In this document: positions 5,202-15,005 of the stretch, one piece after another
How positions within the stretch are numbered: the first letter of the stretch is position 1
Layout: each line of letters begins with the position of its first letter
Virus genome (UHGV): UHGV-2053560
Source of the DNA: a virus
Strand: one strand, 5' to 3'
Length of the DNA: 15,005 nucleotides
Notes under the pieces: generated by a model
What the model was told of the DNA's origin: nothing
Databases searched by the model: none
The model's input: the letters and a program-made list of their open reading frames with translations, nothing else
Made by a program: the position numbers and the translations under genes

Positions 5202-5672
5202 CTAATAAAATACCCAATTTTCTGTTTCTTGGTTGTGTCCAAAGTTATATTCAATAACTGGTGTTGATGTATCAATATTTTTCATCCCATCAACAAGAGT
5301 TGATACAACAGCCAAATCTTGTTTTATTCTCATTAAATGGTATTTCTTCCGGCGCAATAAACTTTCAATAGCAAGTTTCTTCGTTGGGAATGCAAAAGAT
5401 CTTTCTGCATTTTTTGCTACTTTCTTAATTGCATATCTATTTCTCCTTTGTTTCCATTCCTGTAACCACTGATTTGGTGCTGGTTTAAAATTAACAACCC
5501 AATGCGCAGGAACCAACCATGCATAATGCTCTGTCTGATGAAAAGCTATATATTGAAGTGCGAATATTTTTATCCCATCTTCTTCAACTGTCGACTGGAA
5601 TCTCCAGAAAACAGGCATTCCATCATGTTCAGTTTCTGATTCAGGAAAAGGTACGCTCCATGATTTTGTCAT
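5202..5672 (-). CDS. Hypothetical protein (156 aa), AT-rich moron in the N-to-cIII interval
   Basis: ATG at 5672 preceded by GAGGTGAGAT; ends in TAG at 5202-5204. Visibly more AT-rich than the flanking genes. Non-repetitive soluble-looking protein; no family recognised. Confidence 0.6.
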   Translation of the reverse strand: MTKSWSVPFPESETEHDGMPVFWRFQSTVEEDGIKIFALQYIAFHQTEHYAWLVPAHWVVNFKPAPNQWLQEWKQRRNRYAIKKVAKNAERSFAFPTKKLAIESLLRRKKYHLMRIKQDLAVVSTLVDGMKNIDTSTPVIEYNFGHNQETENWVFY

Positions 5673-6669: not shown

Positions 6670-7104
6670 TTATTCTTGTTCTCTGGTCAAATTATATAGT
6701 TGGAAAACAAGGATGCATATATGAATGAACGATGCAGAGGCAATGCCGATGGCGATAGTGGGTATCATGTAGCCGCTTATGCTGGAAAGAAGCAATAACC
6801 CGCAGAAAAACAAAGCTCCAAGCTCAACAAAACTAAGGGCATAGACAATAACTACCGATGTCATATACCCATACTCTCTAATCTTGGCCAGTCGGCGCGT
6901 TCTGCTTCCGATTAGAAACGTCAAGGCAGCAATCAGGATTGCAATCATGGTTCCTGCATATGATGACAATGTCGCCCCAAGACCATCTCTATGAGCTGAA
7001 AAAGAAACACCAGGAATGTAGTGGCGGAAAAGGAGATAGCAAATGCTTACGATAACGTAAGGAATTATTACTATGTAAACACCAGGCATGATTCTGTTCC
7101 GCAT
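6670..7104 (-). CDS. rexB: RexB, membrane component of the Rex abortive-infection/exclusion system
   Basis: 144 aa, multiple hydrophobic helices, directly downstream of rexA in the cI transcript. Size, position and sequence agree with lambda RexB as I recall it. Confidence 0.9.
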   Translation of the reverse strand: MRNRIMPGVYIVIIPYVIVSICYLLFRHYIPGVSFSAHRDGLGATLSSYAGTMIAILIAALTFLIGSRTRRLAKIREYGYMTSVVIVYALSFVELGALFFCGLLLLSSISGYMIPTIAIGIASASFIHICILVFQLYNLTREQE

Positions 7105-7119
7105 AATTACTCCTGATAA

Positions 7120-7959
7120 TTAATCCTTAACTTTGCCCACCTGCCTTTTAAAACATTCCAGTATATCACTTTTCATTCTTGCGTAGCAATATGCCATCTC
7201 TTCAGCTATCTCAGCATTGGTGACCTTGTTCAGAGGCGCTGAGAGATGGCCTTTTTCTGATAGATAATGTTCTGTTAAAATATCTCCGGCCTCATCTTTT
7301 GCCCGCAGGCTAATGTCTGAAAATTGAGGTGACGGGTTAAAAATAATATCCTTGGCAACCTTTTTTATATCCCTTTTAAATTTTGGCTTAATGACTATAT
7401 CCAATGAGTCAAAAAGCTCCCCTTCAATATCTGTTGCCCCTAAGACCTTTAATATATCGCCAAATACAGGTAGCTTGGCTTCTACCTTCACCGTTGTTCG
7501 GCCGATGAAATGCATATGCATAACATCGTCTTTGGTGGTTCCCCTCATCAGTGGCTCTATCTGAACGCGCTCTCCACTGCTTAATGACATTCCTTTCCCG
7601 ATTAAAAAATCTGTCAGATCGGATGTGGTCGGCCCGAAAACAGTTCTGGCAAAACCAATGGTGTCGCCTTCAACAAACAAAAAAGATGGGAATCCCAATG
7701 ATTCGTCATCTGCGAGGCTGTTCTTAATATCTTCAACTGAAGCTTTAGAGCGATTTATCTTCTGAACCAGACTCTTGTCATTTGTTTTGGTAAAGAGAAA
7801 AGTTTTTCCATCGATTTTATGAATATACAAATAATTGGAGCCAACCTGCAGGTGATGATTATCAGCCAGCAGAGAATTAAGGAAAACAGACAGGTTTATT
7901 GAGCGCTTATCTTTCCCTTTATTTTTGCTGCGGTAAGTCGCATAAAAACCATTCTTCAT
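7120..7959 (-). CDS. rexA: RexA, sensor/activator component of the Rex exclusion system
   Basis: 279 aa, immediately downstream of cI on the same strand. Size, position and N-terminus (MKNGFYATYRSKNKGKDKRS) agree with lambda RexA as I recall it. Confidence 0.9.
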   Translation of the reverse strand: MKNGFYATYRSKNKGKDKRSINLSVFLNSLLADNHHLQVGSNYLYIHKIDGKTFLFTKTNDKSLVQKINRSKASVEDIKNSLADDESLGFPSFLFVEGDTIGFARTVFGPTTSDLTDFLIGKGMSLSSGERVQIEPLMRGTTKDDVMHMHFIGRTTVKVEAKLPVFGDILKVLGATDIEGELFDSLDIVIKPKFKRDIKKVAKDIIFNPSPQFSDISLRAKDEAGDILTEHYLSEKGHLSAPLNKVTNAEIAEEMAYCYARMKSDILECFKRQVGKVKD

Positions 7960-8071
7960 AATTCAATCCATTTACTATGTTATGTTCTGAGGGGAGTGAA
8001 AATTCCCCTAATTCGATGAAGATTCTTGCTCAATTGTTATCAGCTATGCGCCGACCAGAACACCTTGCCGA

Positions 8072-8788
<717 letters not shown>

Positions 8789-8796
8789 TTAAATCT

Positions 8797-8860
8797 ATCA
8801 CCGCAAGGGATAAATATCTAACACCGTGCGTGTTGACTATTTTACCTCTGGCGGTGATAA
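8797..8860. promoter_or_regulatory. oR3-oR2-oR1 operators with divergent pRM and pR
   Basis: TATCACCGCAAGGGATA (8797-8813), TAACACCGTGCGTGTTG (8819-8835) and TACCTCTGGCGGTGATA (8843-8859). pR -35 TTGACT (8832-8837) and -10 GATAAT (8855-8860); cro SD AAGGAGG at 8875-8881. Confidence 0.9.
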
Positions 8861-8876
8861 TGGTTGCATGTACTAA

Positions 8877-9086
<210 letters not shown>

Positions 9087-9093
9087 ATAACCC

Positions 9094-9125
9094 CGCTCTT
9101 ACACATCCCAGCCCTGAAAAAGGGC
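9094..9125 (+). promoter_or_regulatory. nutR (boxA and boxB)
   Basis: CGCTCTTA (9094-9101) and boxB hairpin GCCCTGAAAAAGGGC (9111-9125), directly after the cro stop. Confidence 0.8.
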
Positions 9126-9204
9126 ATCAAATTAAACCACACCTATGGTGTATGCATTTATTTGCATACATTCAATCAATTGTTATCTAAGGAAATACTT
9201 ACAT

Positions 9205-9483
9205 ATGCAACTTACAAGTACTCGCAAGAAAGCGAATGCAATTACAAGCAACATCCTGAATCGAATTGCTGTACGTGGTCAGCGAAAGGTTGCTGATGCA
9301 TTAGGGATTAATGAATCGCAAATTTCGCGATGGAAAGACAGCTTTATCCCAAAGATGGCCATGCTTCTGGCTGTGCTGGAGTGGGGTGTTGAAGACGAGG
9401 AATTAGCAGAGCTGGCAAAGAAAGTAGCCATGGTGCTGACAAAAGAAAAGCCTCAAGACTGCTGCAACAGTTTTGAGGCCTGA
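9205..9483 (+). CDS. cII: CII-like transcriptional activator (non-lambda allele)
   Basis: ATG at 9205 preceded by TAAGGAAATACTTACAT, as at lambda cII. Product carries the conserved core ESQISRWK...IPK..MLLAVLEWGV, but the N- and C-termini differ from lambda CII. The ORF-track extension to 9145 is rejected. Confidence 0.75.
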   Translation: MQLTSTRKKANAITSNILNRIAVRGQRKVADALGINESQISRWKDSFIPKMAMLLAVLEWGVEDEELAELAKKVAMVLTKEKPQDCCNSFEA

Positions 9484-9679: not shown

Positions 9680-10487
9680 GTTAGCTGATTACAGGCCTCA
9701 ACTGGAGGTCGTGGAGCATCGCGTGGCAGACACCGAAGATGGTTTCATGCGCGTTGCTAACGAGATTACCGACAGTCTGCTGATGGCTGATTTAACCGTC
9801 CGGCAGTTGAAGGTGATGCTCGCTATCATGCGCAAGACATACGGATTCAATAAGCCGATGGATCGACTCACAAACACGCAGATAGCAGCCATGACAGGTA
9901 TTCATCACACTCATGTTTGCGCTGCCAAGCGCCAGCTTATTGAGCGTAAATTCCTCATTGCTGATGGCGTGAAAATCGGAGTGAACAAGGTGGTTTCGCA
10001 GTGGATTAGCCAGGACAGCTTAACATTAGCCAAAACAGCTAATAAAACATTAGCCAAGTCGGCTAATGGGTATAAGCCAAGTCAGCTAAACACAAAAGAC
10101 AATATACAAAAGACAATAAATACAAATACCCCCTTACCCCCTAACGGGGGCGGCGATGGGCAGGTTAAACCTGAACGTCGCAAGGCAGAACGAATCGACT
10201 ACGAATCCTTCCTGAACGCCTACAACACCGAAGTCGGTGACAGACTTCCACACGCTGTTGCGGTCAACGAGAAACGCAAACGCCGCCTGAAGAAAATCAT
10301 CCCGCAACTGAAAACGCCAAACGTGGACGGTTTCAGGGCGTATGTCAGGGCGTTTGTGCATCAGGCCAAGCCGTTTTACTTCGGAGACAACGACACGGGC
10401 TGGACGGCCGATTTTGATTACCTGCTGAGAGAAGATTCGTTAACGGGAGTTCGTGAAGGGAAGTTTGCAGACAGGGGGATTGCATGA
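9666..10487 (+). CDS. Replication initiator, lambda O-like N-terminal domain (P22 gene 18-like)
   Basis: 273 aa. [36 protein letters not shown] parallels lambda O (LTKRQFKVLLAILRKTYGWNKPMDRITDSQL). Iteron array and AT-rich tract lie inside the gene; SD AGGAGTGA before the ATG. Confidence 0.8.
10004..10150 (+). repeat. Replication-origin-like iteron array, AT-rich tract and GC palindrome inside the O-like gene
   Basis: Four ~20-bp imperfect repeats with internal dyad symmetry (GATTAGCCAGGACAGCTTAA, CATTAGCCAAAACAGCTAAT, CATTAGCCAAGTCGGCTAAT, ATAAGCCAAGTCAGCTAAAC), then an AT-rich stretch (10091-10128) and CCCCCTAACGGGGG. Confidence 0.6.
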
Positions 10488-11860
10488 GACAGGATATCGA
10501 AGCGAGCGTTATCGGCGGTCTGCTGATTGGTGGATTAACGCCAACCGCCAGCGACGTTCTGGCAACGCTTGAGCCGGAAGCGTTTTCAATTCCGCTCTAC
10601 CGGAAAGCCTTCGAGGTTATCCGCAAGCAGGCGAGAAACAGAAACCTAATCGACGCGCTGATGGTTGCCGAGGCGTGCGGAGAGGAGCATTTCACGTCAA
10701 TCCTGATGACCAGCAAAAACTGCCCGAGTGCCGCAAACCTGAAGGGATATGCCGGAATGGTCGCGGATAACTATCACCGCCGTCTGGTGCTGGAAATCAT
10801 GGATGAAATGCGTGAACCAATTCAGAGCGGAACCATCGACGCATCGAGTCAGGCGATGGATGAACTTGTAAAGCGTCTTTCAGCCATCAGAAAGCCCCGT
10901 GACGAGGTAAAACCTGTACGGTTAGGGGAAATCATTACTGACTACACTGACACGCTTGACAGGCGTCTGAGGAACGGAGAAGAGTCCGATACCCTGAAGA
11001 CCGGAATCGAAGAACTTGATGCCATCACCGGAGGGATGAACGCGGAAGACCTGGTGATAATCGCTGCTCGTCCTGGTATGGGGAAAACCGAACTGGCGCT
11101 GAAGATTGCCGAAGGCGTTGCAAGCCGCGTTATTCCTGGTTCTGACGTCCGGCGCGGAGTATTGATTTTCTCAATGGAAATGAGCGCATTGCAGATTGCA
11201 GAGCGAAGTATTGCCAACGCCGGGAGGATGTCGGTTAGCGTGCTGCGAAATCCTGCATCGATGGATGACGAGGGCTGGGCACGTGTTGCTAACGGCATGA
11301 GTCAGCTTGCAGATTTGGATGTATGGGTAGTCGATGCCTCGCGGTTATCGGTCGAAGAAATACGCTCAATCGCAGAACGGCACAAACAGGAAAATCCAAA
11401 CCTGTCACTCATCATGGCGGATTATCTTGGCCTGATTGAGAAGCCGAAAGCAGACCGCAACGACCTTGCAATTGCTCACATCTCCGGAAGCCTGAAGGCG
11501 ATGGCGAAAGACCTAAAAACGCCTGTTATCTCCCTGAGTCAGCTTTCGCGCGATGTTGAGAAGCGACCAAACAAACGCCCGACAAACGCAGATTTGCGTG
11601 ATTCAGGAAGCATTGAACAGGACGCAGACTCAATCATCATGCTCTATCGGGAAGCGGTATATGACGAGAACAGTAGCGCCGCGCCATTTGCTGAAATCAT
11701 CGTGACGAAAAACCGTTTTGGCTCGCTTGGTACGGTTTACCAGCGATTCTGTAACGGACACTTTGTTGCATGTGACCAGGATGAAGCCAGACAGATTTGC
11801 ACAGCATCAAATGCGCCTGCTGCGCGTGGCAGACGATATGCACAAGGGGCGGACGTATGA
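10484..11860 (+). CDS. DnaB-family replicative DNA helicase (P22 gene 12-like)
   Basis: 458 aa. Walker [14 protein letters not shown], DnaB-like motifs ([44 protein letters not shown]). ATG overlaps the O-like stop (ATGA). Confidence 0.9.
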
Positions 11861-11940
11861 CCATCTACATCACTGAGCTTGTAACAGGCCTGCTGGTAAT
11901 CGCAGGCCTTTTTATTTGGGGGAGAGTAAATCGTGGTTGA
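11857..11940 (+). CDS. Possible 27-aa hydrophobic peptide
   Basis: ATG overlaps the helicase stop (ATGA); product [27 protein letters not shown] is one predicted transmembrane helix. Very short, so speculative. Confidence 0.25.
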
Positions 11941-12139
11941 GTTGATTTTCTCTGCATTGAGGCTTCTCGGTGCTCTGTGGATGGTGGCGACGTTCATTGT
12001 GGTTGCTGGCTGTTTTGTCCGGTTGGTAGGCGAAGGTAAAGACCTGGTGGGTGTGCTTTTCGGTAGCATTCTCCTGTGGGTGATTATCGGTGTTGCGCCT
12101 GTCGCTGTAGCAAAAATGGCGTGGCGTTTTGTGAGTTGA
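11933..12139 (+). CDS. Small two-helix membrane protein (68 aa, GTG start)
   Basis: GTG at 11933 preceded by GGGGGAGAG; two hydrophobic segments (LIFSALRLLGALWMVATFIVVAGCFV and LVGVLFGSILLWVIIGVAPVAVA). Occupies the slot between the replication genes and ninB. Confidence 0.4.
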   Translation: MVELIFSALRLLGALWMVATFIVVAGCFVRLVGEGKDLVGVLFGSILLWVIIGVAPVAVAKMAWRFVS

Positions 12140-12146
12140 GGTGACA

Positions 12147-12593
12147 ATGAAGCAAATATACATGCTTCGCAACGAAGCAATCAGAAACAACGCCATAGAC
12201 GCAATACTCTCACTTCCGATCGACGACAAGTCACCTCACGAAGTCCACATTAAAGAACCAAAGCGGAGCAATCCTCAAAACCGCCTTATGTGGGCGTTAT
12301 TGCAGGACGTATCGCGTCAGGTGCTTTGGCATGGAGAGAGACTTGCGCCGGAGGACTGGAAAGATCTGTTCACTGCCCTGTGGCTTAAGACCAAAAAAAT
12401 GGAGCAAAGAAGTGCGCCTGGTATCGACGGTGGCGTTGTCATGCTTGGCGTGCGTACCAGCAAAATGCGAAAGGCCAACATGACTGAGCTTATCGAAATC
12501 ATGTTCTGGTTCGGCTCAGAGCGCAACGTGCGATGGAGTGATGACTCCCGGAGAGAGTATGAATGGTCACAACGAAAAGGGAAGGCTGCATGA
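12147..12593 (+). CDS. ninB: NinB (Orf-family recombination mediator)
   Basis: Product from ATG 12147 aligns by eye to lambda NinB (NPQNRLMWALLQDVSRQVLWHGERL vs DQNRKLWACLGDVSRQVEWHGRWL; C-terminal RWSD...EW). Confidence 0.85.
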   Translation: MKQIYMLRNEAIRNNAIDAILSLPIDDKSPHEVHIKEPKRSNPQNRLMWALLQDVSRQVLWHGERLAPEDWKDLFTALWLKTKKMEQRSAPGIDGGVVMLGVRTSKMRKANMTELIEIMFWFGSERNVRWSDDSRREYEWSQRKGKAA

Positions 12594-13117
12594 CTATCAA
12601 ATCAAATACGCCAGCACACGACAAGGACTGCTGGCAAACGCCGCTTTGGCTTTTTGATGCACTGGATATTGAGTTTGGATTCTGGCTGGATTCGGCAGCG
12701 AGCGACAAAAACGCTCTGTGCGCTCACTGGCTAACTGAGGCCGACGACGCACTCAATTCTGAGTGGATAAGCCACGGTGCAATCTGGAATAACCCACCGT
12801 ACAGCAATATCAGGCCGTGGGTGGAAAAAGCCGCTGAGCAGTGCATACAACAGCGACAGACGGTAGTGATGCTTGTGCCAGAGGATATGTCTGTCGGATG
12901 GTTCAGCAAGGCTCTGGAGAGTGTTGACGAAGTTCGTATTATCACTGATGGACGGATTAATTTTATCGAACCATCGACAGGGCTGGAGAAGAAGGGAAAC
13001 AGCAAAGGTTCCATGCTGCTGATTTGGCGACCGTTCATCAGTCCTCGACGGATGTTTACTACCGTATCCAAAGCGGCATTGATGGCGATCGGGCAGGGCG
13101 TCAGGAGGGCAGCATGA
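12590..13117 (+). CDS. Phage-type DNA N6-adenine methyltransferase (Dam-like, orphan)
   Basis: ATG at 12590 overlaps the ninB stop (ATGA). Catalytic NPPY motif in IWNNPPYSN. Sits where lambda has ninC/ninD. Confidence 0.75.
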
Positions 13118-13296
13118 GACGACAGCGACGAAGTATCACCGACATCATCTGCGAAAACTGCAAATACCTTCCAACGAAACGCTCCAGAAATAAACGCAAG
13201 CCAATCCCAAAAGAATCTGACGTAAAAACCTTCAACTACACGGCTCACCTGTGGGATATCCGGTGGCTAAGACATCGTGCGAGGAAAACAAGGTGA
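13114..13296 (+). CDS. ninE: NinE
   Basis: Product [60 protein letters not shown] recognised as NinE; ATG overlaps the methyltransferase stop. Confidence 0.8.
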
Positions 13297-13463
13297 TTGA
13301 CCAAAATCGAAGTTACGAACAAGAAAGCGTCGAGCGAGCTTTAACGTGCGCTAACTGCGGTCAGAAGCTGCATGTGCTGGAAGTTCACGTATGTGAGCAC
13401 TGCTGCGCAGAACTGATGAGCGATCCGAATAGCTCAATGTACGAGGAAGAAGACGATGAGTGA
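13293..13463 (+). CDS. ninF: NinF
   Basis: From GTG 13293 (GTGA overlap with the ninE stop): [48 protein letters not shown], a Cys-rich NinF-like sequence. The ORF track begins at an upstream ATG (13251). Confidence 0.7.
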
Positions 13464-13725
13464 TTTCTCTGAGCTTATTTCCTTCAAAAAAGACAGAGAA
13501 GAAATGCGGACTGAATCTGTCTATTACGTTCAACACCGGAATAAACGCTCTGTGCTTGATCAGGAGCTGGTTATTACCGGAGACCTGGCATTCAGAACAT
13601 ATAAGGCCAGCATGGAAATGAAGGATTTCCCTAAATGTGGTTCTGAAAGAGAAGCCGCGTTAAAGCTGGCAGAGTGGATGCAGAGAATGGCTGCTGCAAT
13701 TGAGAATTACTGGAGCGAACCATAA
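13456..13725 (+). CDS. Hypothetical protein (89 aa) between ninF and ninG
   Basis: ATG overlaps the ninF stop; its stop overlaps the ninG ATG (TAATG). Not present at this position in lambda as I recall it. Confidence 0.5.
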
Positions 13726-14943: not shown

Positions 14944-15005
14944 TGAACCGCCCCGGGTTTCCTGGAGAGTGTTTTATCTGTGAACTCAGGCTGCCAGATC
15001 ATCGT
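14944..15005. mobile_element. Terminal inverted repeat of an IS3-family insertion sequence (IS629/IS1203-like), partial
   Basis: From 14944 the sequence reads TGAACCGCCCCGGGTTTCCTGGAGAGTGTTTTATCTGTGAACTC..., which I recall as an IS629-type terminal IR (IS3-family ends start with TGA). Identification is from memory only. Confidence 0.55.

Follow-up and report, generated by a model that had tools for sequence, protein, structure and literature searches.

A stand-alone, probably GATC-specific adenine methyltransferase of the M.EcoVT2Dam type in the nin region of a lambdoid virus genome

The dam gene between ninB and ninE

Between ninB and ninE of the virus genome UHGV-2053560, of which we analysed a stretch of 15,005 nucleotides (nt; hereafter the window), lies a 528-nt gene on the plus strand (12590..13117) that, by the open reading frame (ORF) list and the raw sequence alike, encodes 175 amino acids and a stop codon. 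We refer to it as dam, for phage N-6-adenine DNA methyltransferase: its product falls in the family described by PF05869 and TIGR01712 and is identical at 174 of 175 residues (99.4%) to M.EcoVT2Dam, the VT2-Sakai protein (BAA94133), the difference being conservative (I60 here, V60 there), while the proteins of mEp213 and Nil2 match it at 100%. We consider it very probable that the gene is the known small stand-alone GATC adenine methyltransferase carried by lambdoid phages and allelic to M.EcoVT2Dam, found also as HK97 gp62 and as the Dam proteins of 933W, Phi24B, mEp213 and Nil2, and we extend this confidence to the explanation as a whole, including the GATC specificity, the expression and the top-up role set out below. 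The gene is already known, named by public pipelines and very common, and an allele differing by one residue has been cloned and characterized.

At the nucleotide level, dam differs from the VT2-Sakai allele at 11 of 528 positions, with 10 of the 11 changes synonymous; as far as a comparison of coding sequences can tell, the gene is shown here to be under purifying selection. The VT2-Sakai gene has the same length, the same position between ninB and ninE and the same overlapping junctions, and its record names 933W L0094 as similar; the Phi24B and HK97 Dam proteins are given at 100%/99% identity (PMC3342100). Of 5426 complete E. coli genomes, 1566 (~29%) carry dam at a nucleotide identity of at least 95%; in these, PGAP names it 'phage N-6-adenine-methyltransferase' and, among the matches listed, names its neighbours 'recombination protein NinB' and 'NinE family protein'. 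A nucleotide search returned the gene from 415 phage records, including Stx1/Stx2 converting phages, mEp213 and Salmonella phages, and more distant relatives occur in ~1900 phage records, Klebsiella, Vibrio, Lactococcus and Gordonia phages among them.

Both ends of dam overlap its neighbours. The start codon (12590-12592) shares an ATGA junction (12590..12593, plus strand) with the ninB TGA (12591-12593), and the stop codon (13115-13117) shares a second (13114..13117, plus strand) with the ninE ATG (13114-13116); a purine-rich, Shine-Dalgarno-like stretch, AAAGGGAAGG, lies 5' of the dam ATG, and AGGAGG stands 6 nt before the ATG of ninE. Because of these overlaps, dam is probably coupled in translation to both ninB and ninE. 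Public annotations of dam disagree over its start codon, since the 27 nt just upstream (window 12563-12589) are coding in mEp213, whose GenBank annotation uses the longest ORF form (start 12563, 184 amino acids), and hold an in-frame TAG in VT2-Sakai. We rejected the 184-residue form on account of that TAG and because the PF05869 and TIGR01712 profiles align from residues 2-4 of the 175-residue form onwards; for the same reasons, 12590 is, judged by comparison of alleles and profiles, the conserved dam start.

The surroundings are those of a standard lambdoid early region. Upstream of dam the window carries genes for an integrase, an Ea22-like protein, SSB and a Rad52-like annealing protein, followed by cIII, N, rexB, rexA, cI, cro, cII, O, a DnaB-type P helicase gene, a small hydrophobic ORF and ninB (12141..12593, plus strand, with the VT2-Sakai-equivalent start at 12147; Orf recombination mediator, PF05772, E 7e-49); downstream come ninE (13114..13296, plus strand, 60 amino acids; PF05322, E 8e-44), ninF, an 89-residue ORF, ninG, ninH and the start of ninI. 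Lambda has ninB-ninC-ninD-ninE at the equivalent place, so that an earlier note on this DNA, made from the letters alone, was right to put the methyltransferase in the ninC/ninD slot; NinC and dam are nevertheless not strict alternatives, because Salmonella phage vB_SosS_Oslo carries both. The same note had read the start and stop overlaps with ninB and ninE correctly, the coupling it drew from them being the probable consequence described above, and its statement that no partner restriction endonuclease is in view holds for the window: none occurs among the named genes, PADLOC finds no defence partner, and the three ORFs without a Pfam family (68, 89 and 156 amino acids) have no PADLOC match. 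With nearly all sizeable ORFs assigned to standard lambdoid functions, no cognate endonuclease and, among the matches listed, NinB and NinE as neighbours, dam is an orphan methyltransferase within the window.

A terminator-like hairpin with a T-run (11886..11919, plus strand; 8 pairs, 6 of them GC) separates the helicase gene from the nin genes in a tR2-like position, which we take to be the place of tR2 in lambda. After it, just 5' of ninB, comes a very hydrophobic ORF of 68 residues (11933-12139, plus strand) that belongs to phrog_1165, a group of unassigned function. The 89-residue ORF between ninF and ninG (13456-13725, plus strand; phrog_1258, no Pfam or PADLOC match) fills a place that is empty in lambda; its start and stop codons overlap those of the genes on either side. 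A further ORF, of 156 residues (5202-5672, minus strand), lies between cIII and N and matches nothing in Pfam or PADLOC. At the far end, a gene for a NinI-type Ser/Thr phosphatase (Metallophos, E 2e-15) begins at ~14517 on the plus strand, overlapping the end of ninH, and leaves the window at 15005.

The window comes from a lambdoid mosaic, either a prophage or a phage. Its lambda-type immunity region (rexB, rexA, a 237-residue cI, cro and cII, in 6670-9483) is joined to an HK97/HK544-like O and DnaB-type P, and the window is covered to at most 50% by any phage record and to at most 74% by any complete E. coli genome. Set against VT2-Sakai, the adjacent ninB allele has diverged far more than dam, as expected for a lambdoid mosaic: 48 of 447 nt differ in ninB (16 non-synonymous codons), against the 11 in dam and 2 of 183 in ninE. 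The sharp change in divergence between ninB and dam/ninE suggests a possible recombination joint near the ninB/dam boundary.

Family, catalytic motifs and predicted fold

The dam product lies well within a single family of phage enzymes. It matches PF05869, 'DNA N-6-adenine-methyltransferase (Dam)', with 218 bits (cutoff 28.1; E=8.3e-65; profile positions 1-167 of 169) and the NCBIfam equivalog TIGR01712, 'phage N-6-adenine-methyltransferase', with 264.2 bits (cutoff 97.05; E=3.3e-79; positions 1-165 of 165), exceeding the curated whole-protein cutoffs over the full profile length in both cases, and it matches phrog_111, 'DNA methyltransferase', at E=8.6e-88. Its best PADLOC matches are orphan methyltransferase (oMTase) models. 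A Pfam search of the product returned nothing besides PF05869, with neither PF02086 nor MT-A70 among the hits.

Aligning 45 homologues, 59-98% identical, shows the residues on which catalysis would depend to be intact. The catalytic motif IV, N68-P69-P70-Y71 (codons 12791..12802, plus strand), is invariant, as are T17 and P18 of the N-terminal, motif X-like W-x-T-P motif (Q16-T17-P18; codons 12635..12643, plus strand) and D34 and A36 of the motif I-like LDSAAS stretch (residues 33-38); all of these are common to T1 Dam. The profile matches and the NPPY at residues 68-71 bear out the description of the gene in the earlier note as an N6-adenine methyltransferase with that motif, and the mutated catalytic motif that the note had named as a possible refutation does not appear on alignment. 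Its label 'Dam-like' is apt for the function and misleading for the ancestry, which lies with the PF05869 phage family rather than with the E. coli/T4 Dam family. Where it went too far was in holding that the target specificity cannot be read from the sequence: given 174 identical residues of 175, the specificity for GATC reported for M.EcoVT2Dam (Radlinska & Bujnicki 2001, as cited in PMC6602927 and PMC7556043) can be carried over, and on this identity the dam product probably methylates the N6 of adenine in GATC on DNA.

An AlphaFold2 model built from the 45-sequence alignment (predicted local distance difference test score (pLDDT) 85, predicted template modelling score (pTM) 0.83) places the W-x-T-P helix first, then the D-x-A-A-S strand, a strand leading into NPPY and three helix/strand units, with no extra domain; as modelled, the protein folds as a small class-I methyltransferase of a single domain and lacks a separate target-recognition domain. 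Sequence search of the PDB gave chance-level matches only (SdiA, E 0.18), so that no solved relative in PF05869 is detectable by sequence, and the closest solved structural neighbour of the model is PCIF1, a eukaryotic methyltransferase that forms N6,2'-O-dimethyladenosine (m6Am) at the mRNA cap. A candidate for the element that reads GATC is the conserved GR-x-F...GN-KGS hairpin (residues 121-141).

Proposed role and its alternatives

Amino-methyltransferases with an NPPY or DPPY motif flip the target adenine into the NPPY pocket and transfer a methyl group from S-adenosylmethionine to its N6. The dam product would do so as a single-domain Rossmann-fold enzyme, with the W-x-T-P helix and the D-x-A-A-S strand, the latter binding the cofactor; NPPY would grip the flipped adenine, and the methyl group would pass to N6 of the adenine in GATC. 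Because the gene lies behind the terminator-like hairpin and is chained by ATGA junctions to ninB and ninE, we expect it to be transcribed from pR along with the nin genes, as a delayed-early lytic gene, and transcription past the hairpin would probably depend on N antitermination. Data from Phi24B agree with this position in the pR operon: its dam, a 528-nt coding sequence 100% identical to that of VT2-Sakai, showed a significant expression change upon norfloxacin induction, its transcript increasing when the prophage is induced, and was grouped with lytic-cycle genes (PMC3342100).

What such an enzyme might add to the host's own is suggested by virion DNA. In lambda, about half of the GATC sites are methylated by host Dam, and virion DNA of P22 and L is under-methylated too, a state for which the proposed cause is that replication is 'possibly' faster than modification (PMC3299994, PMC8022706). 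Phage Dam made during replication would raise the methylation that host Dam leaves partial, and progeny DNA would then resist methylation-sensitive GATC nucleases, both MboI/DpnII-type enzymes and MutH-dependent cleavage. MutH-dependent cleavage reportedly strikes unmethylated GATC in mismatched recombinant DNA, and phage Dam might protect against it. Topping up GATC methylation on fast-replicating phage DNA is, in our judgement, the most likely role of dam.

Several points weigh against this explanation. E. coli hosts already have Dam, and we know of few enterobacterial restriction systems that cut unmethylated GATC, so a protective benefit is unproven. The dam product carries no recognisable DNA-recognition domain, and the GATC specificity of M.EcoVT2Dam is taken here from secondary citations. 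In the literature we found no experiment showing a fitness effect of dam in any lambdoid phage, and a review-style statement describes phage Dam function as 'still not well understood' (PMC7556043). Finally, GATC is depleted in the window, with 34 sites observed against 76 expected from trinucleotide frequencies in a Markov model (ratio 0.45, the second-lowest among palindromic tetramers, only CTAG being lower), which would be less expected if the phage enzyme fully solved the problem; with GATC so strongly under-represented, selection against it still acts on the window genome. The sites are unevenly spread: the integrase gene (1-1194) holds 9 of the 34, and a 2.36-kb stretch (9862-12217) covering the last part of O together with the DnaB-type helicase gene and the 68-residue ORF has none. 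GATC-free prophage regions have been noted elsewhere too (PMC6602927).

It is unlikely, though not negligibly so, that the same GATC chemistry instead serves regulation, tuning phage or host expression or the lysis-lysogeny balance. Stable lysogeny of the Stx phage 933W reportedly needs host Dam (Murphy et al. 2008, cited in PMC3342100), phage Dam was proposed in the Phi24B study as a possible supplement to it (PMC3342100), and GATC sites occur in the immunity and early control region of the window (8070, 8144, 8198, 8949 and 8972). Yet the Phi24B dam transcript is lytic-cycle-like rather than restricted to the lysogen (PMC3342100), and in the window dam stands in the pR operon, 3' of the terminator-like hairpin, where repression in a prophage should silence it. 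Moreover, in lysogens of Shiga toxin-producing E. coli the activity of phage Dam could not be separated from that of the host enzyme, by which 99.9% of chromosomal GATC is already methylated (PMC6602927).

We see a slim chance that the enzyme has a second, non-GATC or RNA substrate, as could be imagined because it lacks a recognition domain and has PCIF1 as closest solved structural neighbour, or that it shields recombining phage DNA from MutHLS cleavage, an idea that would fit the presence of two recombination genes, ninB (Orf) and ninG (Rap), around dam; if either were true, the function of dam would differ from simple Dam mimicry. Slimmer still is the prospect that RNA is the main substrate, or that specificity is relaxed or directed to other sites than GATC, with the 'DNA Dam' label misleading: this is suggested only by the PCIF1 match and by analogy with a DPPW enzyme of the MT-A70 family from a Stx prophage, and the VT2 data speak against it. 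It is scarcely credible that dam is a methylase left over from a restriction-modification system that has degraded, or a passenger gene in decay that no longer has a function, for although it is a methyltransferase without a nuclease and truncated, fused or pseudogene copies exist in databases (for example P0041, P0053 and P0081, and 'DNA methylase (pseudogene)' in Stx2a_F349), the ninB-dam-ninE arrangement is found, again with no nuclease, in mEp213, in VT2-Sakai, and in Stx phages as well as E. coli prophages, catalytic motifs are invariant, substitutions run 10:1 in favour of synonymous changes, and PADLOC places the product with orphan methyltransferases.

Comparison with known methyltransferases

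The top-up explanation treats the dam product as a GATC enzyme, and its relation to other adenine methyltransferases is best seen from its own family outwards. T1 Dam (M.EcoT1Dam) belongs to the same Pfam family (PF05869, 236 bits for T1), is 33% identical over 158 residues and has the W-TP, DxAAS, NPPYS and GR-x-F...GN-KGS blocks in common with the product described here; it differs in being 237 amino acids long, with 48 additional residues at the N-terminus and an insertion that follows motif V, and in coming from a virulent phage with another genomic context. Dam of Haemophilus phage HP1 is PF05869 kin as well, it and T1 Dam having founded the family, and the VT2-Sakai record notes similarity to HP1 Orf13 and M.T1. 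Both T1 Dam and HP1 Dam are said to be GATC-specific.

With E. coli Dam, T4 Dam and DpnM (alpha-class, PF02086), by contrast, there is no sequence-family match: the catalytic motif is NPPY here and DPPY there, and the motif order here is linear and gamma-like, without the recognition domain that those enzymes insert between motifs I and IV. Structural overlap with the group extends over 105-110 residues at 8-10% identity (for E. coli Dam itself, a 110-residue core at 10%). Because PF05869 is the sole Pfam match and the overlap with E. coli Dam does not extend beyond the core, the dam product is a functional analogue of E. coli Dam and not a member of its family. Hia5-type non-specific adenine methyltransferases were likewise considered as kin and rejected, being DPPY enzymes close to Dam, DpnM and T4 Dam (PMC3299994).

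The gamma-class enzyme M.TaqI has a similar motif order, but it carries a large C-terminal target-recognition domain, whereas the protein described here ends after the catalytic core, at 175 residues. Nor does the product belong to the MT-A70 family, whose motif is DPPW and whose Pfam profile it does not match. This separates it from M.EcoPA8orf6770P, an enzyme of a Stx prophage, the same kind of phage, that is also annotated 'DNA adenine methyltransferase' (PMC10810198): that protein is gp5 in the left arm, needs a partner subunit and methylates 16S rRNA (PMC10810198). We therefore rejected the Stx-prophage '16S rRNA methyltransferase' of the Koudelka laboratory as the identity of the window gene, since it is an MT-A70 DPPW protein encoded at another locus.
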